From Gemmatimonadota bacterium (GTDB lineage: Bacteria > Gemmatimonadota > Gemmatimonadetes > Palauibacterales > Palauibacteraceae), in NCBI GenBank assembly GCA_965207805.1, contig OZ242312.1, forward strand, positions 1,068,748 through 1,132,747: a stretch of 64,000 bases of DNA, given 5' to 3'. This document shows positions 6,504 through 20,607 of this stretch, in pieces; positions within the stretch are counted from its first letter, which is position 1; the number at the start of each line of letters is the position of its first letter. The position numbers and the translations under genes were made by a program. The notes under the pieces were generated by a model, which was given only the letters and a program-made list of their open reading frames with translations, was not told the DNA's origin and ran no database searches.

Positions 6504-9031
6504 AGTTCTCCCCGAAGCTCCGCCCCCCCGCCGCCCGGCCCGCCGTCTCGTGGCGCGTCGCCGCGTGGACCGCCACGGCCGCCGTCGCGCTGGCGGCCGC
6601 ACCACCGCTCCAGGCGCAGAACCTCGCCGGCTTCGAGCCCGCCCCCGCGCGCGACAACGCCTTCGCGCTCACGCTCGAGTCCATCATGCGGGGCTCCGAG
6701 CACGTCGGGCAGGCGCCCGTCGGCGTGAGCTGGTCCGACGACGGCGAGTGGATCTACTTCCGCTGGCTCCCCGGCGGCGCCGAATGGCACGAGCCGCGCG
6801 CCCTCTACCGCGTCCGTTCGACCGGCGGCACGCCCGAACGCGTCGATGACGAGGAAGAGCTTCGCCTCGGTCCCATCCTGGCGCAGGGCGACGTCTCCCC
6901 GGACGGCCGCTGGCGCGTGACGTCCTCCGACGGAGATCTCTATCTCATCGAACGGGACGGCGCCGCGACACGCCGGCTGACCCACACGCAGGACTTCGAG
7001 GCAGGACCCGTCTTCTCCGGCGACGGCGCCTCCATCTTCTTCCGCCGCGGGAACAACCTCTTCGCGTTCGACATCGACGACGGCGAGATCCGGCAACTCA
7101 CTTCGATCGGCGGCCCGGAACAGCCCGAGGACCCGGAGGCCGAGGGGCACAAGGCCTTCCTCGAGGAGCAGCAGCGAGAGCTGTTCGAGCACGTCCGCGT
7201 CCAGGACATTCGGGAGGAGCGGGCCGACGAGCGGCGCGAACTCCGGGAGGCCGGGCAACGCGAAACCCTCCACCTCGCGCAGGGCGAGCGCGCGCAGTTC
7301 TTCGTCGCCGACCCCACGGGAAGCCACGTCGCGGTCACCGTCACCCGCGGCGATTTCAACCAGGGTGGCCGACGCACGGATATTCCTCTCTGGATCACGC
7401 AGTCCGGCTATACCGAGAACACCGAGATGCGCCCCAAGGTCGGCGACGAGCAGGGCGTCTCCAGGCTCGCCGTCGTGGACACGGATTCGGGCGAGGCGAC
7501 GTGGCTCGACCTCACCGCGGACGGCTCGGACGCGGACCCGGAGGAGACGGAACCGGAAGACGCGGAGGCCGACGGCGACGAAGCCGAGTCGGACGAGGCG
7601 GCATCCGACGACCGGCTTGCCGTCGCGAGCTTCGCGGGCTGGAACGACGCGGGCACGCACGGGCTCGTGTTCGCCGTGGACTTCGACTACAAGACGTGGC
7701 GCCTCTACGCCTACGAAGCGGCGAGCGGCTCGCTGACGTTGCTCGACACGCATCACGACGAGGCGTGGGTCGGCGGCCCCTGCTTCGGCTTCCAGGGCGC
7801 GGGCTGCATCGGCTGGCTCCCGGCGGAGACGGCGGGCGAGATGCCGCGCGCCTGGTACGTGAGCGAGGAGACGGGTTACTCGCATCTGTACGCGATCGAC
7901 GCCGATGGCGGGAACCGGGAGGCGCTCACGGCCGGCGACTGGGAAGTTCTCGGAGCGACGATCCCCGATGGGTGGGACACGTTCCTCCTCCAGACGAGCG
8001 AACTCTCCCCCTTCGACCAGCATCCGTGGCGCATGGATTTCGACGGCTCGGACCGGGTCCAGCTCCTCGAGGGTGAGGGCTCGTTCACCGTCACGCCGTC
8101 GCCCGACGGGCGCCGCTTCGCGGTCCTCCATTCGCGCGCGAACCGGCCGCCCGAACTCTACGTCGCCGACGCCGCCCCGGGCGCCGCCATGACCCAGGTC
8201 ACGACCTCGCCCACCGAGACGTGGCTCGGCTTCCCCTGGCTCAAGCCCGAGATCGTGCACTTCGAGGCCCGCGACGGGACGCCGGTGCCCGCCCGCATCT
8301 ACCGGCCCGCCGACTTCGGCGTCGAACCCAACGGGGCCGGCGTCATCTTCGTCCACGGGGCGGGGTACCTGCACAACGTCCACAACTGGTGGTCGAACTA
8401 TTACCGCGAATTCATGTTCCACCACTTCCTGGCGGCCCAGGGCTACACGGTGCTCGATATCGACTACCGCGGCTCCGCCGGGTACGGGCGCGACTGGCGC
8501 ACGGCGATCTACCGGCACATGGGCGGCTGGGACCTCTCCGACCAGGTGGACGGCGCCGCGTACCTCGTTCGCGAAGAAGGCGTCGACCCCGACCGCATGG
8601 GGATCTACGGCGGATCCTACGGTGGCTTCATCACGCTGATGGCGCTCTTCACGGCGCCCGAGTCCTTCGCGGCGGGCGGCGCGCTCCGCGCCGTGACCGA
8701 CTGGGCGCACTACAACCACTGGTACACGAGCCGCATCCTCAACCTCCCGCACGAGGACGAGGAGGCGTACCGCCAGTCCTCCCCCATCTACTTCGCCGAG
8801 GGGTTCGAGGGACACCTCCTCATCGCGCATGGGATGTACGACACGAACGTGCATTTCTCCGACGTCGTGCGCCTCGCCCAGCGTCTCATAGAACTGGGGA
8901 AGGAGAACTGGGAGATGGCCGTGTACCCGGTGGAGAACCACGGTTTCGCGGAGCCCTCGTCGTGGACCGACGAATACCGGCGCATCTACGAGTTGTTCGA
9001 GCGCGTGATCGGCGGCGGCCGCGGGGGGTGA
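6500..9031 (+). CDS. S9-family serine peptidase (prolyl oligopeptidase / dipeptidyl-peptidase-like) with N-terminal beta-propeller
   Basis: GTG start overlapping the upstream stop (GTGA), SD ggagg at 6487-6491. Signal peptide. C-terminal alpha/beta hydrolase domain with GGSYGG (nucleophile Ser) and downstream Asp/His (MYDTNVHF...ENHGF). Acidic low-complexity insert near 7510-7620. Confidence 0.8.
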   Translation: MKFSPKLRPPAARPAVSWRVAAWTATAAVALAAAPPLQAQNLAGFEPAPARDNAFALTLESIMRGSEHVGQAPVGVSWSDDGEWIYFRWLPGGAEWHEPRALYRVRSTGGTPERVDDEEELRLGPILAQGDVSPDGRWRVTSSDGDLYLIERDGAATRRLTHTQDFEAGPVFSGDGASIFFRRGNNLFAFDIDDGEIRQLTSIGGPEQPEDPEAEGHKAFLEEQQRELFEHVRVQDIREERADERRELREAGQRETLHLAQGERAQFFVADPTGSHVAVTVTRGDFNQGGRRTDIPLWITQSGYTENTEMRPKVGDEQGVSRLAVVDTDSGEATWLDLTADGSDADPEETEPEDAEADGDEAESDEAASDDRLAVASFAGWNDAGTHGLVFAVDFDYKTWRLYAYEAASGSLTLLDTHHDEAWVGGPCFGFQGAGCIGWLPAETAGEMPRAWYVSEETGYSHLYAIDADGGNREALTAGDWEVLGATIPDGWDTFLLQTSELSPFDQHPWRMDFDGSDRVQLLEGEGSFTVTPSPDGRRFAVLHSRANRPPELYVADAAPGAAMTQVTTSPTETWLGFPWLKPEIVHFEARDGTPVPARIYRPADFGVEPNGAGVIFVHGAGYLHNVHNWWSNYYREFMFHHFLAAQGYTVLDIDYRGSAGYGRDWRTAIYRHMGGWDLSDQVDGAAYLVREEGVDPDRMGIYGGSYGGFITLMALFTAPESFAAGGALRAVTDWAHYNHWYTSRILNLPHEDEEAYRQSSPIYFAEGFEGHLLIAHGMYDTNVHFSDVVRLAQRLIELGKENWEMAVYPVENHGFAEPSSWTDEYRRIYELFERVIGGGRGG

Positions 9032-12000
9032 TGATGCGGCCGGCCCGCGCGCGGCCGGTTCTGGCGCTGGCCCTCGTCGCCTCGGCCTGCGGGGCGCCGG
9101 ACCCCGGACCCTGGGTCGAGGCGGACGGATACCGCTGGCGGGAGCTGCGGCCGCGGGGCTCGGGCGGCTTCCGGCCGCTCGACGGTTCCGACCGCGGCGT
9201 GTCCTTCCTGTACGACGTGGACGAGGAAACGCGCCTTCGCAACCGGGTGCTCGCGGAAGGGCAGGGCGTCGCGATCGGGGACGTCGACGGCGACGGCCTG
9301 GCGGACCTCTTCCTCGCCGGCTTCGGCCGCGCGAGCGCCCTCTACCGCAACCTCGGCGGCTGGCGCTTCGAGGAGATCACGCCGCCCGCCCTCGCGCTCG
9401 CGGACGTGCTCGCGAGAGGCGCCGCGCTCGTCGACGTCGATGGAGATGATGACCTCGATCTCGTGATCGCGGTCCACGGGGGCCGGAACCGGATCTTCCT
9501 CGGCGACGGCGCGGGCGGCTTCGCCGAACTCGAGGACGCGGGTTTCGCCGGGGCGTGGGGGAGCACGACGTCCACGCTGGCCGACGCCGATGGCGACGGC
9601 GACCTGGACCTCTACATCGCCAACTACAAGACGCGGCAGGTCGACGACCTCTATCCGCCGGACGTTCTCGACATCAACCACCTGCAGCGCGGCGACGACG
9701 GAAATCTCGTCATCCCACCGGAACTGCGGGAACTCTACGACGAGCACTACCGCGTGGAGTTCGATGGCCGCTTCGTGCGCCGGTTCGAGCTTGGAGAGCC
9801 GGACGAGTATTACACCGGACTCGGGGACGGACGCTTTGTGCCCGCAGCCCCCGGCGCGCCGCTCACGCGTTCCCGCGGGAACGTCTCGACGCCGGCTCGC
9901 GACTGGGGACTCGCGGCGAGGTTCAGCGACTGGGACGAGGACGGCGACCCGGATCTCTACGTGGCGAACGACTTCAACAGCGAGGACGGAATCTGGATCA
10001 ACCGCGGCGACGGGACGTTCGCGCCCGCTCCGGCGGAGGCCGTCCGCACGACGAGCCTCTCCTCGATGGCCGTCGATGTCGGAGATCTCGATCGCGACGG
10101 AGACCTCGATCTCCTCACCACCGACATGCTTGCCCGGGACGCGGAGGAGCGCCTCGCCCAGACGCCGAGCTACGAGGCCGTCCCCGAGCGGCCGGGCGTC
10201 ACGGACACGAGAGTCCAGGTGAACCGGAACGCGGTGCAGCTTAACCGCGGCGACGGCACGTTCGCCGAGGCCGCGTGGGAGCTCGGGCTCGCCGCCTCCG
10301 ACTGGACGTGGGGCGCGCTCATCATGGACGCGGACCTGGACGGCTGGAACGACATCCTCGTGACGACGGGACACGCGTGGGACCAGTTGGACGGCGATGC
10401 GAACGCCCGCGTGGCCGCGATCCCCGGGCTGCCGGCAGATCAGGCTCTGCGCATGTTCCCGTCGCTCCCGCAGCCGAACGTCGCCTACCGCGGAGGGTCG
10501 GACGGCTTCACGGATGTGAGCGAGAGTTGGCGCTGGGGACACGAGGCCGACATCTCGCACGGTCTCGCGGCGGGCGATCTCGACCGCGACGGCGACCTCG
10601 ACGTCGTCGTGACCCGGCTCGGCGCGCCCCCCGTCCTGTACCGGAACGACGCTCCGGCGCCCCGCATCCTGGTGCGTCTGCGGGGGTCGGGCCCGAACAC
10701 GCGCGGAATCGGCGCCCGGATCCGCCTCGAGGGGTCCGACGGGGTTCCCGCCCAGGTGCGGGAGATCACCGCGGGCGGCGCCTATCTCTCCTCTTCGGAA
10801 CCCGCCGCCAGCTTCGCCGCGGAGTCGGACGGGGAGATGGTCCTCACCGTCGACTGGCCGGACGGCCGCCGTACGCGGCTGGAAGGCGTCGTCACGAACC
10901 GGGAATACGTGATCGATGCTGCCGCTGCGGAGCCGGTGGCTCCCGACCCGGACGGCCACGCCGCGGCGGCGACAGCCGAGGCCGGCGCCCACTTCGTGGA
11001 CATTTCGGAGCGGCTCGGGCACCGGCACGTCGAATCGCCCTTCGACGACCGGCTCCGGCAGCCGCTCCTGCCCCACTCGCTCGATCGCCTCGGCCCGGGC
11101 GTATCGTGGATCGACGTGGAGGACGATGGCGACGCGGATCTCGTGGTCGGGAGCGGCCGGGGGGGCAGCCCGGTCGTGATTCGGAACGAGGGCGACGGGT
11201 TCGCCGCCCCGCGCGCCCTCGTGCCCGCGCTGGCGTGGGACGCGACCGCCGTGCTGCCGCATCGCGCGGCCGACGGTCGCGTCGCGCTGCTCATCGGCAC
11301 GAGCGCGTACGAGGCGGGCTCGCCCGCGGAGGCCGCGGCCGTGCCCGCGGTCATCGCGGCGCCGCTCGGCGCCTCCGCGCCGGCGCCCCCGCTCATCGAA
11401 GCTCCCGGCACCTCGCCCGGGCAGCTCCCCGCCGCGACCGGCCCCCTCGCCCAGGCCGACATCGACGGCGACGGCGACCTCGACCTCTTCGTGGGCGGAC
11501 GCGTCGCCCCCGGCGCCTACCCCATTGCGGTCGACTCCCGCCTGCTGATCCACGATGGCGACGCCCTGCGCGTCGATGCGGAGCGCTCTCTCCCCTTCGC
11601 GCGTCTCGGGCTCGTCTCCGCCGCGCTCTTCACGGACTACGACCTCGATGGCGACCCCGACCTCGCGCTCGCCCTGGATTGGGGCAGCGTCCGCCTCTTC
11701 CGCAACGAGGAGGGCCGTTTCACCGACGTGAGCGACGCGCTCGGGCTCACGCGTCTCAGGGGACGCTGGAACGGCCTCGCCGCCGCGGACTTCGATGAGG
11801 ACGGCCGGCCCGACCTCGTCGCCACCGGCTGGGGCGCGAATCTCGACGTCCCGCCCGCCTACTCGCTCATCTACGGCGACATGAACCGCGACGGCATCGT
11901 CGATCTCGTCGAGGCCCGGATGGAATCCGGCACGTGGCGTCCGCTACGGGGAAGAGATGCGCTCGCCGTCCCCGGCGGACTCTCGGCGCTCCTCCGCGTG

Positions 12001-12762
12001 ACGTACGAGCGATTCGCGAACACGCCTCTGACCGACGTCATCGGCGGCCTGGACCCTGAGCGCCGGCTGGACGTCAACGAACTGCGCCACACCGTGTGGC
12101 TCAACCGCCCTTCCGGCTTCGAGAGCGCCCCGCTGCCCGCGGCGGCCCAGCGCGCGCCCGCGTTCGGGGTCGCCGGCGCCGACCTCGACGGGGACGGCCA
12201 CGAAGATCTCGTGCTCGCGCAGAACTTCTACGCCGGCCGGCCGGGCGCGCCGCGCCACGACGCGGGGCGCGGGCTCTGGCTGAGAGGGGACGGCGAGGGA
12301 GGCTTCGAGCCCGTGCCGGGATCCCGGTCCGGGATCGCGGTCTACGGGGACGCGCGGGCCATCGCGCTCGCGGACCACGACCGCGACGGACGGGTGGATG
12401 TGGCCTTCGGCGTCAACGGCGGCGAGACCCGGCTCTATCGCAACGTCGGTGCGACGCCCGGTCTGAGGGTCACGCTCGAAGGCCCACCCGCGAACCCGCG
12501 GGCCATCGGCGCCCGCCTCCGGCTCGAATACGCGGACGGCACGTTCGGTCCGGCGCGGGAGGTCCGGTCGGGGGAGGGTTACCTGGCCCGCCACGAATCG
12601 ACGCAGACGCTGGGCATGGCGGGTGCGGCCGACACGGCTCCCGCGCCCGCGACGCTGCATGTCGTGTGGCCGGATGGCGAGGAGACGTCCGTTTCGATCG
12701 CGCCCGGGACTCTGGAAGTGCGCGTCCCGCCCGCCGGGACGGGAGGCTCGTCCGGCCTCTGA
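9031..12762 (+). CDS. CRTAC1-family protein, tandem double unit (2x [FG-GAP/VCBS repeats + ASPIC/UnbV domain]), lipoprotein
   Basis: ATG overlapping the upstream stop (ATGA). Lipoprotein signal ...LALALVASAC. Repeated GDVDGDGxxDL / DxDGDGDLDL FG-GAP motifs. Two ASPIC/UnbV-like C-terminal modules (RLEGSDGVPAQVREITAGGAYLSS... and RLEYADGTFGPAREVRSGEGYLARHES...). Confidence 0.75.
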   Translation: MMRPARARPVLALALVASACGAPDPGPWVEADGYRWRELRPRGSGGFRPLDGSDRGVSFLYDVDEETRLRNRVLAEGQGVAIGDVDGDGLADLFLAGFGRASALYRNLGGWRFEEITPPALALADVLARGAALVDVDGDDDLDLVIAVHGGRNRIFLGDGAGGFAELEDAGFAGAWGSTTSTLADADGDGDLDLYIANYKTRQVDDLYPPDVLDINHLQRGDDGNLVIPPELRELYDEHYRVEFDGRFVRRFELGEPDEYYTGLGDGRFVPAAPGAPLTRSRGNVSTPARDWGLAARFSDWDEDGDPDLYVANDFNSEDGIWINRGDGTFAPAPAEAVRTTSLSSMAVDVGDLDRDGDLDLLTTDMLARDAEERLAQTPSYEAVPERPGVTDTRVQVNRNAVQLNRGDGTFAEAAWELGLAASDWTWGALIMDADLDGWNDILVTTGHAWDQLDGDANARVAAIPGLPADQALRMFPSLPQPNVAYRGGSDGFTDVSESWRWGHEADISHGLAAGDLDRDGDLDVVVTRLGAPPVLYRNDAPAPRILVRLRGSGPNTRGIGARIRLEGSDGVPAQVREITAGGAYLSSSEPAASFAAESDGEMVLTVDWPDGRRTRLEGVVTNREYVIDAAAAEPVAPDPDGHAAAATAEAGAHFVDISERLGHRHVESPFDDRLRQPLLPHSLDRLGPGVSWIDVEDDGDADLVVGSGRGGSPVVIRNEGDGFAAPRALVPALAWDATAVLPHRAADGRVALLIGTSAYEAGSPAEAAAVPAVIAAPLGASAPAPPLIEAPGTSPGQLPAATGPLAQADIDGDGDLDLFVGGRVAPGAYPIAVDSRLLIHDGDALRVDAERSLPFARLGLVSAALFTDYDLDGDPDLALALDWGSVRLFRNEEGRFTDVSDALGLTRLRGRWNGLAAADFDEDGRPDLVATGWGANLDVPPAYSLIYGDMNRDGIVDLVEARMESGTWRPLRGRDALAVPGGLSALLRVTYERFANTPLTDVIGGLDPERRLDVNELRHTVWLNRPSGFESAPLPAAAQRAPAFGVAGADLDGDGHEDLVLAQNFYAGRPGAPRHDAGRGLWLRGDGEGGFEPVPGSRSGIAVYGDARAIALADHDRDGRVDVAFGVNGGETRLYRNVGATPGLRVTLEGPPANPRAIGARLRLEYADGTFGPAREVRSGEGYLARHESTQTLGMAGAADTAPAPATLHVVWPDGEETSVSIAPGTLEVRVPPAGTGGSSGL

Positions 12763-12771
12763 CCCGCGGAA

Positions 12772-13431
12772 CTAACGGAAGCGGTAGCCGAAGCCGATCG
12801 TGACGCCGATGTCGTTCTGCAGCTTCGACGCGTCCGTCGCGGCGGAGATGTAGTAGGACGCCATGTCCCGGAGTTCGCCCCGGAACCAGAGCGCTGACAT
12901 CAGTTGCACCCGGACCCCGATCGCGGCCGTCGCCATCGGATCCGTCGCGCTGAGTTTCGGCACTTCGGCACCGTAGAACTTCAACTGCCGGAGCCCGCCG
13001 CCCATCGTGAAGTAGGGTTCGAGCGCGCCCGCCGAGCCCGACGACCGAAGCCGGAACGTCAGGTTCACCGTGCCCGCCAGGTACTCCATTTCGCCGAGCG
13101 TTCCGGGACCCCGTCCGGGTCCGCCGCCGACGCCTTCGAGCGTCGCCGGGGAATAGAGACCCATGACGCCGATCCCGACCGCGCGCGAAGCCCAGTAGGT
13201 CAGCTCGCCCCCCATCATCACGTCCGGCGGCATCACGGTGCCGTACGCGCCGGTGTTGTCCGTGAGGTTGTTGAGGGGCTGGATGACGCCGGCGAGTCCG
13301 AACAACTCCGGACCGGTATCATCGCCGAACGGGGCCGCGGGAGCCATCTGGGCCGTCAGGTTCGACGCTCCGGGAGCGAGCCCCCACAGAAGGAAAACGA
13401 GAAAGAGAAGAACGCCGGACGGGCGTCTCAT
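12772..13431 (-). CDS. Outer-membrane beta-barrel protein (OmpA/OmpW-like porin family, hypothetical)
   Basis: Signal peptide MRRPSGVLLFLVFLLWGLAP. Alternating hydrophobic beta-strand pattern and aromatic-rich C-terminus (IGFGYRFR). ATG overlaps the upstream stop (ATGA). Confidence 0.6.
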   Translation of the reverse strand: MRRPSGVLLFLVFLLWGLAPGASNLTAQMAPAAPFGDDTGPELFGLAGVIQPLNNLTDNTGAYGTVMPPDVMMGGELTYWASRAVGIGVMGLYSPATLEGVGGGPGRGPGTLGEMEYLAGTVNLTFRLRSSGSAGALEPYFTMGGGLRQLKFYGAEVPKLSATDPMATAAIGVRVQLMSALWFRGELRDMASYYISAATDASKLQNDIGVTIGFGYRFR

Positions 13432-16307
13432 TTGGTCCTCACGATCGTGATTAGCGGTTCCGCGGTCTCACCCGCCGGGGTTCCTCCCGCCGTTTCCAGC
13501 GACAGCGACAGGCCCGGCGCGCCGGGAGCCGAGGCGAGTGAGAAGTACTGTACGCTCGACGGCCCTACGTCGAGGCTCAGCACCCGGGTTTCAAACCCCA
13601 GCGGCTCGGCCCGCAGCGCGATCGCGGTCGGAAGACCCGACCGGGCGTCCGCATCCTGATTCAACGATCGGAACACGTCCGTGGCGTCCCACGTTGCCGC
13701 GGCAAGCGGCGGCGCCTCCTCCGGCCCCGCCTCCGGCGCGTCGAGGTCCTCCTCCGCGGGATCCTCCGACCCGTCCTCCAGCGTTCCCGCGCCGAGCGCC
13801 AGCGAGACCGACACGTCCGCCAGAATGTTCGCCCACTCCCTTCCCGTGACCCGCTCCAGGTTCGCGATCCCGCGTCCGTAGTTCTGTCCGCCCCCGACGA
13901 CGGATCGGAAGAAGGCCCGTTCATCCCCCCCCGCCTGGTCCGCGAGCCGTCGCAGGAGGAACCAGCCGAATCCCCGCATCTGCAACCCGCCGACGCCGTC
14001 CGGGTCGTCCGTCGAGACGGTGGGAGCTCCGGGGAGTCCGAGCATGTACAGGCCGAGGTTGCGGAAGTTGGTCAGCATGTAGGCATTGAAGGTGTCGAGT
14101 GCCTCGGGCGTCGCGGATACGCGATCGAAGGTGAGGCGGTCGCCCACCGGGAGCCCCAGCGCGGCGAGCCCCGCCACCTCCTCGGCCAGACTCGAAAGCG
14201 CCTCATCCAGCCAGACTTCCTCCGCCGCCCCGAAACCCGCCGAAGAAACCGGCACCCGGCGCCCGGCGCTGACGATATGCTGGACTTCATGCGCCACGAG
14301 CGCGGGCGTCTCGCGCAGCAGATCCTCCGTCGAGATGGCGCGGCCGAGCGTCGCATCGGGGTCCGCGCTCACGCTGTAGACGATCTCTGCCTCGTTGCTC
14401 GCCGGGCAGATCCCGCCGTCCGGGTCCGACAGCTCGCCGTCGCCCCGTCCCGATGCGGCAAGATCCTGGGGGAGGGAGAACCCGCCGACGCCCGCCTCGC
14501 CGTCGCCGAGCCGGTTCACGGCGGGCGTGAACAGGATGACGACGCGGCCGTTCCGGTCGATGTCTTCTGGGGGACCGAAATAGGAGGTCACGGCCGGAAG
14601 CACCGTCCCGTCCAGTTCCTGCGCGAGCCCGAGCCACTCTTCCTCCGTCGGGCCTCCGGCGGGTGCGGTGAGATCCTCCACCAGGACCACGCCGTCGCCC
14701 ACGGCTCGCACCGTTCCGCGTACCGTGCTCATGGGGTCGACGCAGGTGGCCGCCAGCTCCGGGCCGACGGAGAAGAAGTACTCGAGCGTGTCTCCCGGGA
14801 CCGGCGCGGAAACCGCTGTCGATCCGTCGGACCGAAGGGGCGAGACCCTGGCCTGAACAAGTCGGGCAAGCGTGCGTGCGCGAATCCCGATGTCCCTGCG
14901 CGTGCCGGAGAGCGCGGCCTCCGCGACCTGAGGGTCGATCGTCCCGCGGCCCACCGCGGTCGCCGGGCCATCGCCCGACATGTCGGCAGGCGTCCGCAGC
15001 GTGAGCCGGAGCGGGAGTTCGCTCGAAGCGGTCCGCCCCGTATTGCCGATGACGATTCGATACTCCCGCGTCTCGGGCTCGATGTCTTCCGGCGCCCCCG
15101 GTTCTCCCGCCTCGCCCGCATCCACGGGCGCTCCGGGCCGGAACTGGACGCATTCGACCTCGACGGGTCCGCGCAGCGTGATCGATTCGCCGACGTCGAG
15201 ACCTACGCGCAGGTTCGCCGGTTCGATCGGCAGCAGAAGACCGTTGCTGGCGTCGGAACCCACGAGCACCCGCACGCCGACCTCGCGCTCGGGCAGGCAC
15301 GTGCGGGCGAAGGCCGGCACTTCCACCGTGAGTTCCGTCTCCGTGGCGCTCACCACCGTCGCCGCCGTGCCTTCGATCCAGACCTCGTTGTCGGCCGGAA
15401 CCGAGCGGAAGCCGCTGCCGTAGAGAAGCGCCCGCGTGCCCGCGGCAAGTCTTCCGTTCCCGATCGAGTCGAGTTGTACGGCCCCGCCCGGCGCTGCGAG
15501 CGCCGTGGCCGAAAAGGAGAGCGTGTCCGAGTACACGCCGCCCGAAGCGAAGACGCGGATCCGGTAGTCGCCCGGCCGCGAGCCCAGCGTGAAGACGGCG
15601 CCGCCCCGTCCGTCCGCGTCCGTCATCACGATGTCGTGCGTGAGGGCGCCTGCGCTTTCCGGCGTCTCCTCCGGCGCAGGCGGTTCCCCCGGCTCCGCCA
15701 CGGCCATCGTATCCGCCGCCTCCGGCAGTCCCGGCGTGTCCTCCGCTTCCGCCCCGTCCGGGGTGTCCTCCGGCACCGTCCATTCGAAGGCGAGGCGGAC
15801 GCCGCCGGCCGGAGCGCCGCTCGTCGTCTCCGCCCGGATGGAGAACGGGAGCGGCAGCTGGCTTCCCGCCTCCGCCCGCTGGCCGTCTCCCTCCACGATG
15901 CTGAGAAGGACCGTGTCCGCGGCCTCGGCGAGGACGAGGAAGCGGAGCGGCGGGACGTTCGCGGCGCTCGGGATGTCCGCCTGGATCTCCGCCTCGCCCG
16001 GCGTGGGCCCCGCGCGGTAGACCGATTCCGCGACGCCGTTCTGCCCCGCGACGGCGACCCCCGGCGACAGCTCCCCCTCGCCCCGCACGATGACGAAGCG
16101 GACCGGGGCCCCTTCGACCGCGTTCCCGAGCGCATCCTCGACCCGGACCGCGATCGGGGGGTCCGTGGCCTCACCCGTCACGATCGTGTCCACGGCGGCG
16201 GAGACGGGGACGAGCGTCGTCGGCGGAGAGCCGACCTCCGTGCTGCCACCGTCCCCGCACCCGATCGCGAGCACGCCCGCGAGCATGGCCAGCGCGCCGC
16301 GCCTCAC
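13428..16307 (-). CDS. Large lipoprotein zinc metalloprotease candidate (gluzincin-like HEVQH...E) with Ig-like/Big and IPT/TIG domains
   Basis: GTG start 16307 overlapping the upstream stop (GTGA). Lipobox ...LAIGCGDGG. N-terminal Big-like Ig domains, an IPT/TIG-like segment, HExxH (ALVAHEVQHIV) with Glu ~19 aa downstream. Acidic linkers. 959 aa. Confidence 0.65.
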   Translation of the reverse strand: MRRGALAMLAGVLAIGCGDGGSTEVGSPPTTLVPVSAAVDTIVTGEATDPPIAVRVEDALGNAVEGAPVRFVIVRGEGELSPGVAVAGQNGVAESVYRAGPTPGEAEIQADIPSAANVPPLRFLVLAEAADTVLLSIVEGDGQRAEAGSQLPLPFSIRAETTSGAPAGGVRLAFEWTVPEDTPDGAEAEDTPGLPEAADTMAVAEPGEPPAPEETPESAGALTHDIVMTDADGRGGAVFTLGSRPGDYRIRVFASGGVYSDTLSFSATALAAPGGAVQLDSIGNGRLAAGTRALLYGSGFRSVPADNEVWIEGTAATVVSATETELTVEVPAFARTCLPEREVGVRVLVGSDASNGLLLPIEPANLRVGLDVGESITLRGPVEVECVQFRPGAPVDAGEAGEPGAPEDIEPETREYRIVIGNTGRTASSELPLRLTLRTPADMSGDGPATAVGRGTIDPQVAEAALSGTRRDIGIRARTLARLVQARVSPLRSDGSTAVSAPVPGDTLEYFFSVGPELAATCVDPMSTVRGTVRAVGDGVVLVEDLTAPAGGPTEEEWLGLAQELDGTVLPAVTSYFGPPEDIDRNGRVVILFTPAVNRLGDGEAGVGGFSLPQDLAASGRGDGELSDPDGGICPASNEAEIVYSVSADPDATLGRAISTEDLLRETPALVAHEVQHIVSAGRRVPVSSAGFGAAEEVWLDEALSSLAEEVAGLAALGLPVGDRLTFDRVSATPEALDTFNAYMLTNFRNLGLYMLGLPGAPTVSTDDPDGVGGLQMRGFGWFLLRRLADQAGGDERAFFRSVVGGGQNYGRGIANLERVTGREWANILADVSVSLALGAGTLEDGSEDPAEEDLDAPEAGPEEAPPLAAATWDATDVFRSLNQDADARSGLPTAIALRAEPLGFETRVLSLDVGPSSVQYFSLASAPGAPGLSLSLETAGGTPAGETAEPLITIVRTK

Positions 16308-17437
16308 CGCGGCTCCACCTTCCAGAAGGCGATGCCGCCCGCCTGCTTGCCCACGTCCACGCTCGCCGCCCGGACCCCGTCCCGGAGGTCGATCACGTCC
16401 ACCGTTCCGGGCTCGCCGCCCACGCCCTCCACGCTCACGAAGGCGTACCGCGAGTCCGGAGAGATTGCGATCCCGTGCGGCAGCGTCCGCGTGTTCGGAA
16501 CCCGGGCCACCTCCGTGCCGCCGGCCAGATCCCAGACGCCGGTCGCCTGCCCGCCCTTGTACGTCACGACGAGGTAGGCGCCGTCCGGAGACACATCGAG
16601 ATTGTACGGACCTTCGCCCGTCTCGAACCGCCGCGTCACCCGCCACGACTGCACATCGATCTCCAGCACCTCCGCGTTCCGGTTGCACGCGACGTACACA
16701 TGGCGTCCGTCCACGGCCGGGTGCGCCCACGTCGGGCTGCACGCGGCCGCTCCCACGGGCTGTGTCGGGAGCCAGTCGTACGGCCAGGCCTGCTCCGAGC
16801 CCGGGGAGAGGAGAAAGCGCTGCGTGACCTCGAGCCGGTGCGCGTCGACCTCCACGAGCATCTCATCCATCATGCACACCGAGTAGTGCAGCGCCCCGTC
16901 CGCCGTGAGTCGCGAGCCGTGCGGCATCGTGCAGGTCGGGATCTGCGCGACCTCGATCATCGCGCCGACGTCCACGACGGACACCGAACTCGGCTCGTGT
17001 TCGCCGTGCAGGTTGAAGTTCGCCGCGAAGAGCAGGCCCGCCGGCGTCACCTGCATGGTGGCGGGGAAGAGCCCCAGTTCGGCGCTCCCCAGCGGACGGT
17101 TCGTCTCCGTGGAATAGGCGACGACCGTGCCGAAGGGATTCCCGTGCGCGAGCGTCACGTACCACCGTTCCCCGCTCGGATCGACCGCCAGGCCGTGCGG
17201 CCCGTCGATTTCCGTCGGGAAGCGGCCCACGAAGACGGAATCCAGCACCGACGCACCGGTGCCATCGAACCGGACGAGATCGACGCGATCCTCCGATTCC
17301 GCCGCCACGTAGACGTAATACGACGACTGGCCGTCGGGGCTGTTTTCCTGGGCGGCCGCGGGCGGAACCGCCGCGACCGTCATTCCCAGCGCCCACAAGG
17401 CCATCGCCATGCGGGGTGTTGTAGACTCGGCTGGCAT
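16304..17437 (-). CDS. YVTN-family beta-propeller repeat protein, secreted
   Basis: Signal peptide (MAMALWALGMTVAAVPPAAAQ). Multiple ~40-aa repeats with the PHG(L/I)A(V/I)(D/S)PDG...YV(T/A) pattern. Confidence 0.7.
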   Translation of the reverse strand: MPAESTTPRMAMALWALGMTVAAVPPAAAQENSPDGQSSYYVYVAAESEDRVDLVRFDGTGASVLDSVFVGRFPTEIDGPHGLAVDPSGERWYVTLAHGNPFGTVVAYSTETNRPLGSAELGLFPATMQVTPAGLLFAANFNLHGEHEPSSVSVVDVGAMIEVAQIPTCTMPHGSRLTADGALHYSVCMMDEMLVEVDAHRLEVTQRFLLSPGSEQAWPYDWLPTQPVGAAACSPTWAHPAVDGRHVYVACNRNAEVLEIDVQSWRVTRRFETGEGPYNLDVSPDGAYLVVTYKGGQATGVWDLAGGTEVARVPNTRTLPHGIAISPDSRYAFVSVEGVGGEPGTVDVIDLRDGVRAASVDVGKQAGGIAFWKVEPR

Positions 17438-17565: not shown

Positions 17566-17952
17566 TCGTCGGCGGAGGGAGAAGAGGTCGCGGACGGGTG
17601 CTCCGCACGCCGTTCGAGGAAAGTCCGGGCTCCGCAGGGCACGGCGCCGGGTAACGCCCGGGCGTCGCAAGGCGACGGAAAGTGCCACAGAGAGCAGACC
17701 GCCGATGGCGGCTTAGGCCGCACAGGCAAGGGTGAAAGGGTGGGGTAAGGGCCCACCGCGTTTCCTGGTAACAGGAGACGGCACGGCAAACCCCGCCGGG
17801 AGCAAGGCCAAGCAGGAACGAGCGGCGGCCCGTCGCGTTCGAGTTCCGGGTAGGCCGCACGAGGCCTCGGGAAACCGCAGGCCCCAGATAGATGACCTCG
17901 CCGCGGGCCTGGCCCGCCGGTAACAGAACCCGGCTTATCTCCCTCCGCCTCA
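17566..17952 (+). ncRNA. rnpB: RNase P RNA (rnpB), bacterial type A
   Basis: Universally conserved GAGGAAAGTCCGGGCTCC...AGGGCA; ...ACAGAACCCGGCTTA near the 3' end. 5' GGCGGAGGGAG pairs with 3' CTCCCTCCGCC (P1). Ends are approximate (+/-10 nt). Confidence 0.85.
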
Positions 17953-17974: not shown

Positions 17975-19264
17975 TTGGCTTCAACGTCCTCCGCCGCGAT
18001 GAGGTTCGACATTCGCGAGCACGTGCTCGACAACGGGTTGAGAGTCGTCCTGCAGCCGGATGCGTCGGCTCCCCTCGTCGCCGTTCACGTCATGTACCAC
18101 GTGGGATCGAAGAACGAGCGCGCCGGCCGCACCGGCTTCGCGCACCTCTTCGAGCATCTCCTCTTCCAGGGCTCCGAGCACGTACCGCGCGAGCACCACT
18201 TCAAGCTCGTCCAGGATGCCGGCGGCACGCTCAACGGGACGACGTGGTTCGACCGCACGAACTACTTCGAGACGCTGCCCGCGAACGAACTGGATCTCGG
18301 CCTGTGGCTGGAGTCCGACCGCATGGGGTTCTTCAAGCCGGGGATTACACAGGAGAAGCTCGACAACCAGCGCGAGGTCGTGAAGAACGAGCGGCGGCAG
18401 TCGTACGAGAACCGCCCCTACGGCCTTGCGTTCGAGGCCCTGCTCGAGCGCGCCTATGACGAGGGACACCCCTACCGTCATCCGACCATCGGCTACATGC
18501 CCGACATCGACGCGGCCCGGCTCGAGGACGTACACGAGTTCTTCGACCTCCACTACGGACCCAACAACGCGACCCTCGTCCTGGTCGGCGATTTCGACCC
18601 GGCTGCGGCGCTGGCGCGCGTCGAGGCCTGGTTCGGGGAGATTCCTCCGCGACCCGTGGCGCCGCGCCCGGACGTACCCCTCCCGGTGCGCGGCGGCGAG
18701 CGGCGCACCCTCCTTCGAGACCGCGTCCAGATGCCCCGCGTGTACCTCATGTATCATTCGCCGCGCTACGCGGACCCCGATTTCGAGGCCGTCGTCATCC
18801 TCAACTACCTGCTCGCCGACGGGAACAGTTCCCGCTTCGAGAAGACGCTCGTGTATGAAAAGCGGATGGCGGCGGACGTGACCTCCTTCACCTGGCCGAC
18901 CGAGAGTGCCGGGATGTGCTTCGTCGTCGCGACCGCCCGCCCCGGCGTCGCCGCCGCCGACCTCGAGACCGAGGTGAGGGACGTCCTCGATGACCTGCTT
19001 CGCGGCGGCGTCGAGGAGGAAGAGTTGGAGGGGGCGCGCAACCGGGCGCGGCGCGGGCTCCTGAACGGACGCGCCGGCTTCGGCGACCGCGCGGACGCGA
19101 TCGCGCACGCCGCCGTGTTGCGGGGCGACGCCGGCTACGTGAACGACGCCTTCACGCGCTACGGAGCCGTCGGCCGCCCGGACGTGGAGCGCGTGGCCCG
19201 CGCCGTGCTCGACCCGGGCGGGCTCACGGTCCTCCACGTCGTTCCCGAGGAGGAGACGTCTTGA
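17975..19264 (+). CDS. M16-family zinc peptidase (pitrilysin/insulinase-like), active subunit
   Basis: Inverted zinc motif HxxEH (GFAHLFEHLLFQGSE) plus downstream Glu. TTG start as listed; ATG alternative at 17999. Confidence 0.85.
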   Translation: MASTSSAAMRFDIREHVLDNGLRVVLQPDASAPLVAVHVMYHVGSKNERAGRTGFAHLFEHLLFQGSEHVPREHHFKLVQDAGGTLNGTTWFDRTNYFETLPANELDLGLWLESDRMGFFKPGITQEKLDNQREVVKNERRQSYENRPYGLAFEALLERAYDEGHPYRHPTIGYMPDIDAARLEDVHEFFDLHYGPNNATLVLVGDFDPAAALARVEAWFGEIPPRPVAPRPDVPLPVRGGERRTLLRDRVQMPRVYLMYHSPRYADPDFEAVVILNYLLADGNSSRFEKTLVYEKRMAADVTSFTWPTESAGMCFVVATARPGVAAADLETEVRDVLDDLLRGGVEEEELEGARNRARRGLLNGRAGFGDRADAIAHAAVLRGDAGYVNDAFTRYGAVGRPDVERVARAVLDPGGLTVLHVVPEEETS

Positions 19265-20607
19265 CCCCCGACCGCGCGGTGCGCCCGGCACCGGCGGCCC
19301 CGCGCGCGCTCGCGCTCCCGCGCTTCGAGCGGCACACGCTCGACAACGGCCTCCGGGTCGAATACGCCGAACGACGCGGTCTGCCCGAGGTGTCGCTCCA
19401 CCTCGTCCTCGAATGCGGCGCGGGCGCCGAACCGCCGCATCTCGGTGGTCTCAGCGAGCTGACCGCCCGGCTCCTCACCGCCGGCACTCCGGGGCGGGAC
19501 GCCATCGAGATGGCACGCTGGCTCGACCGCCTCGGCGTCGGCTACCGCGCCACGGTGGGCTACGCCGTCGGGGCCGTCTCCATGCACTTCCTGTCGGAGG
19601 TGTTCGAGGAAGCGCTCGATTTCCTCGCCGCGACCATCCTCGATTCCGACTTCCCCGAGCACGAAGTCGAACGCATCCGCGGAGAGCGCATCGACGAAAT
19701 CGAACGCCAGGCGGACGATCCGGCGACCGTCGCGGGGCTCGCCACCATCGCCGAACTCTACGGCGACCGCCTGTACGGTCGGCCGGTCGCCGGCACCGCC
19801 GCCACCGTGTCGGAGATCGGCCCCGAAGCGGTACGGGAGTTCCACGACGCGCGCCATCGCCCCGGCGGCGCACTCCTCATCGCGTGCGGCGACCTCGACC
19901 GCGACCGTCTCATGTCCGCCACGGAGGCGCGTTTCGGCGCCTGGAGCGGCGAGGCCGCCCCGGTCCCGCCCCCGGAAACGCCGGAGCCGCGGGGGGGCGA
20001 TGTCATCCTCATCGACCGTCCCGGCAGCGCCCAGAGCGAGATCCGCGTCGCGACGGTGGGCGTGCCCTATAACACCGAGGACCATCACGCGATCATCGTG
20101 GCCAACGCGATCCTCGGCGGTCTCTTCAACTCCCGGATCAACCTCAATCTGCGCGAGGAGAAGGGGTGGACCTACGGGGCGAGATCGAGTTTCCGGTTCC
20201 GCCGGGGCGCGGGACCCTTCGTCGCGCGCACGGCCGTCGAGACCGGCCGGACCGGCCCCGCGTTCGAGGAGATCCTGCGCGAGATCGAGACCATGCGCGC
20301 GACGCCCGTCACCGACGATGAAATGAAACTGGCCCGCAACGCCCTCACGCTCTCGCTCCCGCTCCAGTTCGAGACCGCGGTGCAGATCTGCGGAAAGGTG
20401 AGCCGTCAGCGCGTATTCGGCCTCGCCGACGACTACTGGGAGACGTACCGCTCCCGCATCGAGGCCGTGACGCCGGACGAGGTGCGGGAGGTCTGCCGCA
20501 CGTACCTCGACCCCGACCGCCTCACGCTCCTCGCCGTGGGCGACGCGGCGACGGCCGCGCCCACGCTGGACGGCCTCGGGCCCGTGGACGTCCGGCCGGT
20601 CGCGTGA
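19261..20607 (+). CDS. M16-family peptidase, probable non-catalytic partner subunit
   Basis: M16 fold (LDNGLRVEY... with a downstream glycine-rich loop) but no HxxEH. Start overlaps the upstream stop (TTGA). Typical M16B pair. Confidence 0.8.
   Translation: MTPDRAVRPAPAAPRALALPRFERHTLDNGLRVEYAERRGLPEVSLHLVLECGAGAEPPHLGGLSELTARLLTAGTPGRDAIEMARWLDRLGVGYRATVGYAVGAVSMHFLSEVFEEALDFLAATILDSDFPEHEVERIRGERIDEIERQADDPATVAGLATIAELYGDRLYGRPVAGTAATVSEIGPEAVREFHDARHRPGGALLIACGDLDRDRLMSATEARFGAWSGEAAPVPPPETPEPRGGDVILIDRPGSAQSEIRVATVGVPYNTEDHHAIIVANAILGGLFNSRINLNLREEKGWTYGARSSFRFRRGAGPFVARTAVETGRTGPAFEEILREIETMRATPVTDDEMKLARNALTLSLPLQFETAVQICGKVSRQRVFGLADDYWETYRSRIEAVTPDEVREVCRTYLDPDRLTLLAVGDAATAAPTLDGLGPVDVRPVA

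Follow-up and report, generated by a model that had tools for sequence, protein, structure and literature searches.

Three overlapping minus-strand genes, encoding a β-propeller protein, a large lipoprotein and a small outer-membrane barrel protein, were analyzed in a stretch of 64,000 nucleotides (nt) from a Gemmatimonadota bacterium (contig OZ242312.1, positions 1,068,748 to 1,132,747; this whole stretch is hereafter the window, and all positions are counted within it). The analysis addressed the putative metallopeptidase carried by the lipoprotein, and its relationship with the barrel encoded directly downstream. The genes and the features of the lipoprotein are as follows, with protein positions in amino acids (aa).

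12772-13431, minus strand: outer-membrane barrel gene, 219 aa
13428-16307, minus strand: lipoprotein gene, 959 aa, GTG start
13437-13610, minus strand: C-terminal β-sandwich of the lipoprotein, aa 900-957 (AlphaFold2 strands at aa 909-957, with a predicted local distance difference test score, pLDDT, of ~80-92 over the block)
13785-15185, minus strand: M30-like gluzincin module of the lipoprotein, aa ~375-841 (profile and Foldseek matches to lugdulysin)
14202-14204, minus strand: Glu702 in WLDEAL, predicted third zinc ligand
14277-14291, minus strand: HEVQH, aa 673-677 (His673, Glu674 and His677), predicted zinc-binding and catalytic motif
15222-16217, minus strand: immunoglobulin (Ig)-like stalk of three domains (Pfam TIG/Big_1, AlphaFold2 strands with pLDDT, and Foldseek)
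16257-16307, minus strand: signal peptide with lipobox LAIG/C, Cys17 (from the translation)
16304-17437, minus strand: propeller gene, 377 aa from the ATG at 17437
17572-17952, plus strand: rnpB, class A RNase P RNA (Rfam RF00010, 253.6 bits)

Direct reading of the sequence confirmed the layout given by the original prediction, a note made from the letters of this DNA alone, in that the three minus-strand genes lie at these coordinates and overlap by 4 nt at both junctions: GTGA at 16304-16307 joins the propeller and lipoprotein genes (..GAG CCG CGG TGA / GTG AGG CGC..), and ATGA at 13428-13431 joins the lipoprotein and barrel genes (..ACC AAA TGA / ATG AGA CGC..). The rnpB gene, which the same note had described as divergent from this operon, was recovered by Rfam on the opposite strand, and 134 nt separate it from the ATG of the propeller gene; it is a conserved neighbor of the operon and no functional component of it. 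Because the G+C content of the window is ~71%, long chance open reading frames (ORFs) are frequent in it; the propeller, lipoprotein and barrel ORFs are genuine genes and not chance ORFs, since each has many homologues and the lipoprotein and barrel yielded models of usable confidence (pLDDT 83.5 and 74.5, respectively). A promoter and terminator scan of the intergenic regions gave no usable site. The closest relatives, at 97-99% identity, were proteins of Candidatus Palauibacter soopunensis and of related sponge or marine Gemmatimonadota metagenome-assembled genomes (MAGs). The order Palauibacterales has been described (PMC10469786), in a paper in which peptidases and outer-membrane proteins are not discussed.

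We addressed the identity of the central part of the lipoprotein by profile and structure comparison. Single-sequence scans of the lipoprotein against Pfam and NCBIfam returned no peptidase family. The profile built from alignment A1 (23 full-length homologues) matched lugdulysin (7bb8), a solved M30 metallopeptidase, with an expectation value (E) of 1.4e-15 over an alignment that spans HExxH and WLxEALS, and the profile from alignment A6 (45 family members) matched the same structure with an E of 4.4e-28 and 101 bits over chain residues 25-250, the lugdulysin alignments ending before the Tyr315 region. Consistently, when the AlphaFold2 model of the lipoprotein was compared with the PDB by Foldseek, the lugdulysin structures 7bb9 and 7bb8 were the best matches other than Ig repeats (E 1.8e-12 and 2.7e-11), with target-normalized template modeling (TM) scores of 0.60 and 0.63, which amounts to fold similarity to an M30 crystal structure. 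The modeled region, aa ~375-841, comprises an N-terminal β-rich subdomain and a helical catalytic domain. Across 73 homologues, Glu674, His677, Trp699, Glu702 and Glu709 were invariant, and His673 was conserved in at least 90%; Glu702 was invariant in alignments A1, A2, A5 and A6, and its motif WLDEAL aligned with WLNEAL of lugdulysin. These results indicated that the module, as judged from its profiles, is a gluzincin with intact predicted catalytic residues that is homologous to M30. The HExxH metalloprotease of the original prediction was thus upheld, and M30, one of the families named there for testing, proved to be its closest solved relative. Per-member Pfam scans gave no more than sub-threshold hints of M30 and MA_2, and the M30 model of Pfam (Peptidase_M30, PF10460) was found in 1 of 23 homologues, at an E of 0.043, and in 0 of 10 sampled family representatives. 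We placed the module in a divergent M30-related family, and not among canonical M30 members, because it fails this curated model and differs in architecture and envelope context.

One orthologue, P0035 (alignment A1, from a MAG chromosome of 3.07 Mb), departed from the rest in the His673 column, having AREIQH in place of AHExxH; this loss of the first zinc-binding His suggests a pseudo-enzyme or an assembly error.

The module is preceded by a lipid anchor and an Ig-like region. Translation from the GTG start gave the N-terminus VRRGALAMLAGVLAIGC, which holds a signal peptide that ends in a lipobox; VRRGALAMLAGVLAIG stands directly before Cys17, and this cysteine was nearly invariant among homologues, with the consensus ACGD. 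The AlphaFold2 model of the lipoprotein, based on 73 homologues (mean pLDDT 83.5, predicted TM score 0.76), contained two Big_1-like Ig domains (aa 31-128 and 132-270) followed by a TIG/IPT domain (aa 278-362). In Pfam, TIG was detected above threshold at aa 285-353, and Big_1 at aa 49-112 was sub-threshold in this protein yet detected in 23/23 homologues; the length of 959 aa, the lipobox Cys17 and these two domains agree with the Ig/TIG-containing lipoprotein that had been predicted. Foldseek matches of the stalk in the PDB were to the tandem-Ig proteins intimin, invasin and FdeC and to the MG domains of alpha2-macroglobulin. At the other end of the protein, the β-sandwich was conserved up to a C-terminal IVRTR motif, and an NCBIfam scan of the lipoprotein left its C-terminal 600 residues without any match. 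The non-lipid cysteines 337, 386, 522 and 634 were nearly invariant, a pattern that could reflect disulfides in an extracytoplasmic protein. A motif of the protein, LQMRGFGW, was also strongly conserved.

Further features of the lipoprotein were observed outside the catalytic region. The segment just past the lipid cysteine (aa 17-33, window 16209-16259) was unusually conserved for a lipoprotein tether, with the consensus ACGDxGSTxxGxPPxxL, and its CGD motif recurred in lipoprotein paralogues; this segment might act as a signal for sorting or for docking. In addition, two acidic, Pro/Glu/Ala-rich inserts of low complexity with pLDDT <50 were observed, a disordered one inside the second Ig-like domain (aa 181-215, window 15663-15767), and another that separates the C-terminal sandwich from the catalytic domain (aa 845-869, window 13701-13775); both are present in Palauibacter proteins and not in distant orthologues.

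The extent of the protease family was determined with a profile of its C-terminal module; among 1.84 billion representative proteins, this profile matched 4,282 clusters at E<=1e-3, of which 1,465 remained at E<=1e-30. Named members came from Gemmatimonadota, Rhodothermales and Myxococcaceae, and where the source gave a protein name it was "hypothetical", "Ig-like domain-containing" or "cadherin domain-containing". Ten sampled members carried no Pfam peptidase domain, Big_1 or Big_2 alone being found in some of them. In the scanned members the module was without a Pfam match, and no NCBIfam model matched it in the lipoprotein of the window, the single protein scanned in that case. Thus, the M30-related family is large and effectively unannotated.

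To compare loci, one genome per GTDB species was scanned, which yielded 80 loci, all in Gemmatimonadota, and one more locus was obtained via a homologue; full-length relatives of the lipoprotein occurred in 59 loci, the other loci being paralogues, and the comparison was made by tblastn, by a hidden Markov model (HMM) of the barrel, and by nhmmer for rnpB. The barrel gene lay immediately downstream of the lipoprotein gene, on the same strand, in 52 of the 55 loci with enough sequence, and this adjacency persisted down to 31-33% identity; the ATGA overlap itself was kept in lineages down to ~42% lipoprotein identity. The propeller gene was directly upstream of the lipoprotein gene in 27/59 loci, which belong to a Palauibacter-like clade with a lipoprotein identity of at least 41%; in another 7/59 it was displaced, lying 2.5-3.3 kb downstream of the barrel and after an LVIVD-repeat lipoprotein, and in the remaining loci of the 59 it was not found. 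Because the barrel is adjacent in 52/55 loci and the propeller in 27/59, we concluded that the ancestral conserved unit is the lipoprotein and the barrel, two genes rather than three, and that the propeller is a lineage-specific later addition, inserted between rnpB and the lipoprotein. Of the triad that had been proposed as a conserved unit, the lipoprotein-barrel part therefore stands, and the propeller part does not.

The persistence of this pair could also arise if the barrel were an independent small outer-membrane protein of OmpA/OmpX type that stays next to the lipoprotein through a frozen chromosomal region. The M16b-M16a-rnpB block, divergent from the lipoprotein-barrel pair, was conserved in nearly all ortholog loci (to 33% lipoprotein identity), so that the whole neighborhood, with rnpB and the two M16 peptidase genes, is kept in the same loci; where the propeller was not found, the distance from the lipoprotein gene to rnpB upstream of it was mostly a few hundred to ~1,000 nt, and in two loci it came to several kb. 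An independent barrel would further agree with its generic fold and with the occurrence of related M30-like lipoproteins without a barrel. However, the common strand and the overlap or short gap suggest an operon, the rearrangements in these loci (propeller insertion and variable downstream genes) surround the pair and never split it, the barrel HMM matched a single ORF in each ortholog locus and nothing else in the 83 loci and the window, and divergence proceeds at a similar pace in the barrel and the lipoprotein. We favored a real link between the two genes because they share a strand with overlap or short spacing, because the genes downstream of the barrel differ between lineages, and because the propeller was inserted outside the pair; a barrel that is merely a neighbor we regard as unlikely, albeit as a serious competitor. 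The same observations bear on a worry voiced in the earlier note, that the barrel might be a generic protein found in unrelated contexts: the fold is indeed generic, but the sequence family was confined to this context in the DNA examined.

The barrel itself was modeled by AlphaFold2 as a signal peptide followed by eight long strands (aa 40-217; pLDDT 74.5), and Foldseek matched it to the transmembrane domain of OmpA (TM score 0.79), to OprG (E 6.6e-8) and OmpW (E 3.1e-7), and to NspA and Ail/OmpX, autotransporter barrels appearing as weak matches of low TM score. Its score against Pfam OMP_b-brl (PF13505) was 22.0 bits, under the cut-off of 28.7, and three barrel homologues carried precomputed PF13505 matches; NCBIfam OMP_myx_plus gave 24.4 with a cut-off of 60, and an exact-sequence look-up of the barrel protein found no record. 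Within its 219 aa there was no periplasmic OmpA_C domain and no POTRA/TPR or other extra domain. The protein is thus predicted from its model to be a small 8-stranded barrel of OmpA/OmpW/OmpX type, and no porin, which replaces the earlier description as "porin-like". When 31 non-redundant orthologues were aligned, the strands proved to contain conserved Arg, Glu and Asp residues, as in OmpA, OmpX and OmpW, and these in-strand charges resemble the salt-bridge network in the lumen of closed barrels. In the same alignment, the mean conservation of the predicted external loops L1-L4 was 0.46-0.56, close to that of the strands (0.51-0.63), and that of the short periplasmic turns T1 and T3 was ~0.35; PLxNLT, TDP and LQND are motifs of the conserved loops. 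External loops of small 8-stranded barrels are usually hypervariable; the loop conservation seen here is unusual and is compatible with a conserved external binding surface.

Several roles for the barrel were considered in light of this predicted fold. Known translocons for lipoproteins and other proteins have at least 12 strands together with periplasmic domains; in Slam, TPR repeats accompany a DUF560 barrel of 14 strands. Because the barrel at this locus is small and has 8 predicted strands, it is too narrow for the 959-aa protein, whether folded or unfolded, and a Slam-like, two-partner or autotransporter-type exporter was ruled out by the predicted strand number and size. The translocon role suggested originally was thus abandoned, the conserved in-strand charges also speaking against it. 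A three-gene version of the export idea would make all three genes obligatory, with a Slam-like barrel that moves the lipoprotein to the surface by export or flipping and a propeller that serves as periplasmic chaperone. It would suit the 4-nt overlaps at both junctions in this genome and genus; it is contradicted by a barrel of 8 predicted strands and 219 aa and by a propeller that is not found or is displaced at most ortholog loci, and we consider it extremely improbable. Alternatively, the barrel might be a channel of OmpW/OprG type that takes up what the protease releases, either amino acids or small hydrophobic products, the coupling of the two genes being functional and not physical. OprG and OmpW were among the top structural matches, and the conserved adjacent M16 pair suggests a peptide-processing neighborhood, but closed barrels of OmpA type match as well or better, and the conserved Arg, Glu and Asp in the strands resemble the lumen salt bridges of closed barrels; such a channel is therefore quite improbable in our judgment. 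PagP and PagL enzymes need a catalytic His, and a PagP- or PagL-type enzymatic barrel was rejected, the 75%-consensus list of the barrel being without His.

The propeller was analyzed separately. Its 377-aa sequence opens with a Sec signal peptide (MPAES...AAVPPAAAQ), and it scored above the cut-offs of Pfam Cytochrom_D1 (PF02239, 32.5 bits, cut-off 25.5) and YNCE (PF21783, 32.1 bits, cut-off 27.1); its best solved relative was the YVTN propeller 1l0q (E 3.4e-18), and the TIGR02276 repeat was slightly under its cut-off, so that the YVTN identity assigned to it before was corroborated. In NCBIfam, lactonase-type NosZ and hydrazine synthase beta were matched weakly (51-53 bits, with cut-offs of 560-700), most probably through similarity common to propellers in general, and a relative of nitrous-oxide reductase or hydrazine synthase was rejected on these scores. 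The propeller evolves more slowly than the lipoprotein, with 67-71% identity where the lipoprotein has 42-52%. In L041, the one distant homologue inspected, Cys 169, 188, 233 and 251 of the propeller were shared, and in that locus (L041:11588-17286) the displaced propeller gene follows a gene for a 718-aa LVIVD-repeat lipoprotein and precedes one for a 750-aa protein with a CxxCH heme-binding motif and TPR-like repeats. The propeller may functionally be part of another, possibly redox-related, gene set.

The loci that carry paralogues of the lipoprotein differed from the ortholog loci. Three of them (L050, L052 and L053) encode Ig-stalk lipoproteins and have neither rnpB nor the barrel; a further set (L058-L080) carries shorter M30-like lipoprotein genes, often as tandem pairs without Ig stalks, and most lack the barrel. 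In 18/26 of these loci, a conserved lipoprotein of ~170 aa with a weak DUF5818 match was encoded downstream, for example at L052:10678-11208 and L059:11312-11806. The loci with this DUF5818-like gene look like a second cassette type, and the M30-like cassettes tend to carry a small downstream gene for an envelope protein, with the partner differing by cassette.

Taken together, we proposed that two genes make up the core of the locus and form an envelope module, in which an M30-like protease lipoprotein on an Ig stalk is served by a dedicated 8-stranded barrel partner that docks or anchors it, a proposal that we hold to be somewhat likelier true than false. Under this model, the three Ig-like domains (Big_1-like, Ig-like and TIG) would form a lipid-anchored stalk, probably at the outer membrane or cell surface, and the stalk would present an M30-related gluzincin that presumably acts as a zinc endopeptidase through HExxH and the downstream Glu. 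The barrel would be translationally coupled to the lipoprotein through the ATGA overlap and co-expressed with it, and would be the dedicated membrane partner of the protease, docking or anchoring it through physical contact, or otherwise cooperating with it, and would not be an export channel; an anchoring or docking role is plausible. The propeller would probably be an accessory periplasmic or secreted protein of the Palauibacter-like lineage that stands outside the ancestral module.

Several observations weigh against this proposal. Adjacency alone is weak functional evidence, because rnpB, which is surely unrelated in function, is conserved as a neighbor too. The barrel is not obligatory for the Ig-stalk M30-like architecture, because L050, L052 and L053 have the Ig stalk yet are followed by the DUF5818-like lipoprotein. 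The barrel model was built from a shallow alignment and is of moderate confidence (pLDDT 74.5), and the lipoprotein of the window gave no match to Peptidase_M30 at E<=1. Finally, Ig/MG-like domains are known also from periplasmic lipoproteins such as bacterial alpha2-macroglobulin. This last point leads to a different placement of the protein, in which the lipoprotein faces the periplasm from either membrane and serves in envelope protein turnover or quality control instead of acting as a surface protease. The match of the N-terminal domains to the MG domains of that periplasmic protein would fit such a placement, as would the lack of an export signal or secretion system nearby; nevertheless, Big_1/TIG arrays are typical of the surface adhesins intimin, invasin and FdeC, the partner is predicted to be an integral outer-membrane barrel with conserved external loops, and the residue at +2 after the lipid cysteine is Gly and not Asp (the sorting rules of the phylum may differ). 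We consider a periplasmic orientation unlikely, although deserving of attention.

The model of a protease lipoprotein with a dedicated barrel partner can be extended further, in a form that we put forward as a doubtful speculation. The two genes might constitute a hitherto undescribed two-component surface-display module, in which the conserved external loops or the lumen of the barrel hold or thread the lipoprotein much as Omp barrels hold RcsF, such that the protease stands on its three-Ig stalk at the Gemmatimonadota cell surface. The DUF5818-like lipoprotein of the sister cassettes would then be an alternative solution, and the family of more than 4,000 clusters would be a major group of unannotated envelope proteases in FCB-group and myxobacterial lineages.

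The genes on either side of the operon and rnpB were also recorded. Two M16 peptidase genes on the plus strand (17975-19264 and 19261-20607) overlap each other by 4 nt, and the first begins 23 nt past rnpB on the same strand; this spacing, together with the conserved block, raises the possibility that rnpB is co-transcribed with the M16 pair. On the other side, a lipoprotein of ~1,243 aa with FG-GAP/VCBS and UnbV_ASPIC domains is encoded on the plus strand at 9031-12762, convergent with the barrel gene, with a likely start at 9031 (MMRPARARP...ACGAP). The stop codons of these two convergent genes are 9 nt apart, and no terminator-like hairpin was present in between.

The assignment to an M30-related zinc metallopeptidase offers a testable annotation for a large family whose members are labeled "hypothetical" or "IPT/TIG / Ig-like domain-containing protein", and the putative proteases are abundant in Gemmatimonadota, including the uncultured, sponge- and marine-associated Palauibacterales. 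If the barrel is a docking partner, the pair would represent a new mode, outside Proteobacteria, of combining an outer-membrane barrel with a lipoprotein enzyme; with an unrelated barrel, the locus would be an ordinary operon with a divergent protease.

In agreement with the original prediction, which recognized no named system here, no named multi-gene system matched the locus, and no described system is known to us in which a dedicated 8-stranded barrel accompanies a lipoprotein gluzincin, no systematic search for one having been made. The closest enzymes are those of MEROPS family M30, hyicolysin of Staphylococcus hyicus and lugdulysin of S. lugdunensis (PDB 7bb8/7bb9), with which the window protein shares HExxH and the downstream Glu in WLxEALS, profile homology over ~225 residues (the N-terminal β subdomain and the catalytic helices), and a similar predicted fold. 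However, the window protein is under the detection limit of PF10460, and its family, with more than 4,000 clusters, is a separate one. It is a lipoprotein of a diderm, carrying three Ig-like domains at its N-terminus and an additional β-sandwich at its C-terminus, whereas lugdulysin-type enzymes are secreted Gram-positive pre-pro-enzymes. In overall design, the protein is reminiscent of SslE/YghJ of Escherichia coli, an M60-like zinc protease that is lipid-anchored, has Ig-like accessory domains and an HExxH...E site, and has a presumed surface role. Export of SslE relies on a type II secretion system whose genes lie close by, whereas the protein described here is M30-like and is accompanied by a small barrel and no secretion system. 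The barrel is similar in predicted strand number and fold to the 8-stranded barrels known from the OmpA N-terminal domain, OmpX/Ail, NspA and OmpW/OprG, but differs from them in having no OmpA_C domain, a sub-threshold Pfam score, conserved loops, and a gene bound to one lipoprotein gene. In the RcsF-OmpA/OmpC/OmpF complexes and among the Slam-dependent surface lipoproteins, a lipoprotein likewise needs an outer-membrane barrel for its display or function. These serve as models only for the cooperation of a lipoprotein with a barrel that we infer here; no homology to RcsF or Slam was found, and the barrel of the Gemmatimonadota pair is distinguished by being dedicated to its lipoprotein, co-transcribed with it as judged from the gene layout, and 8-stranded.

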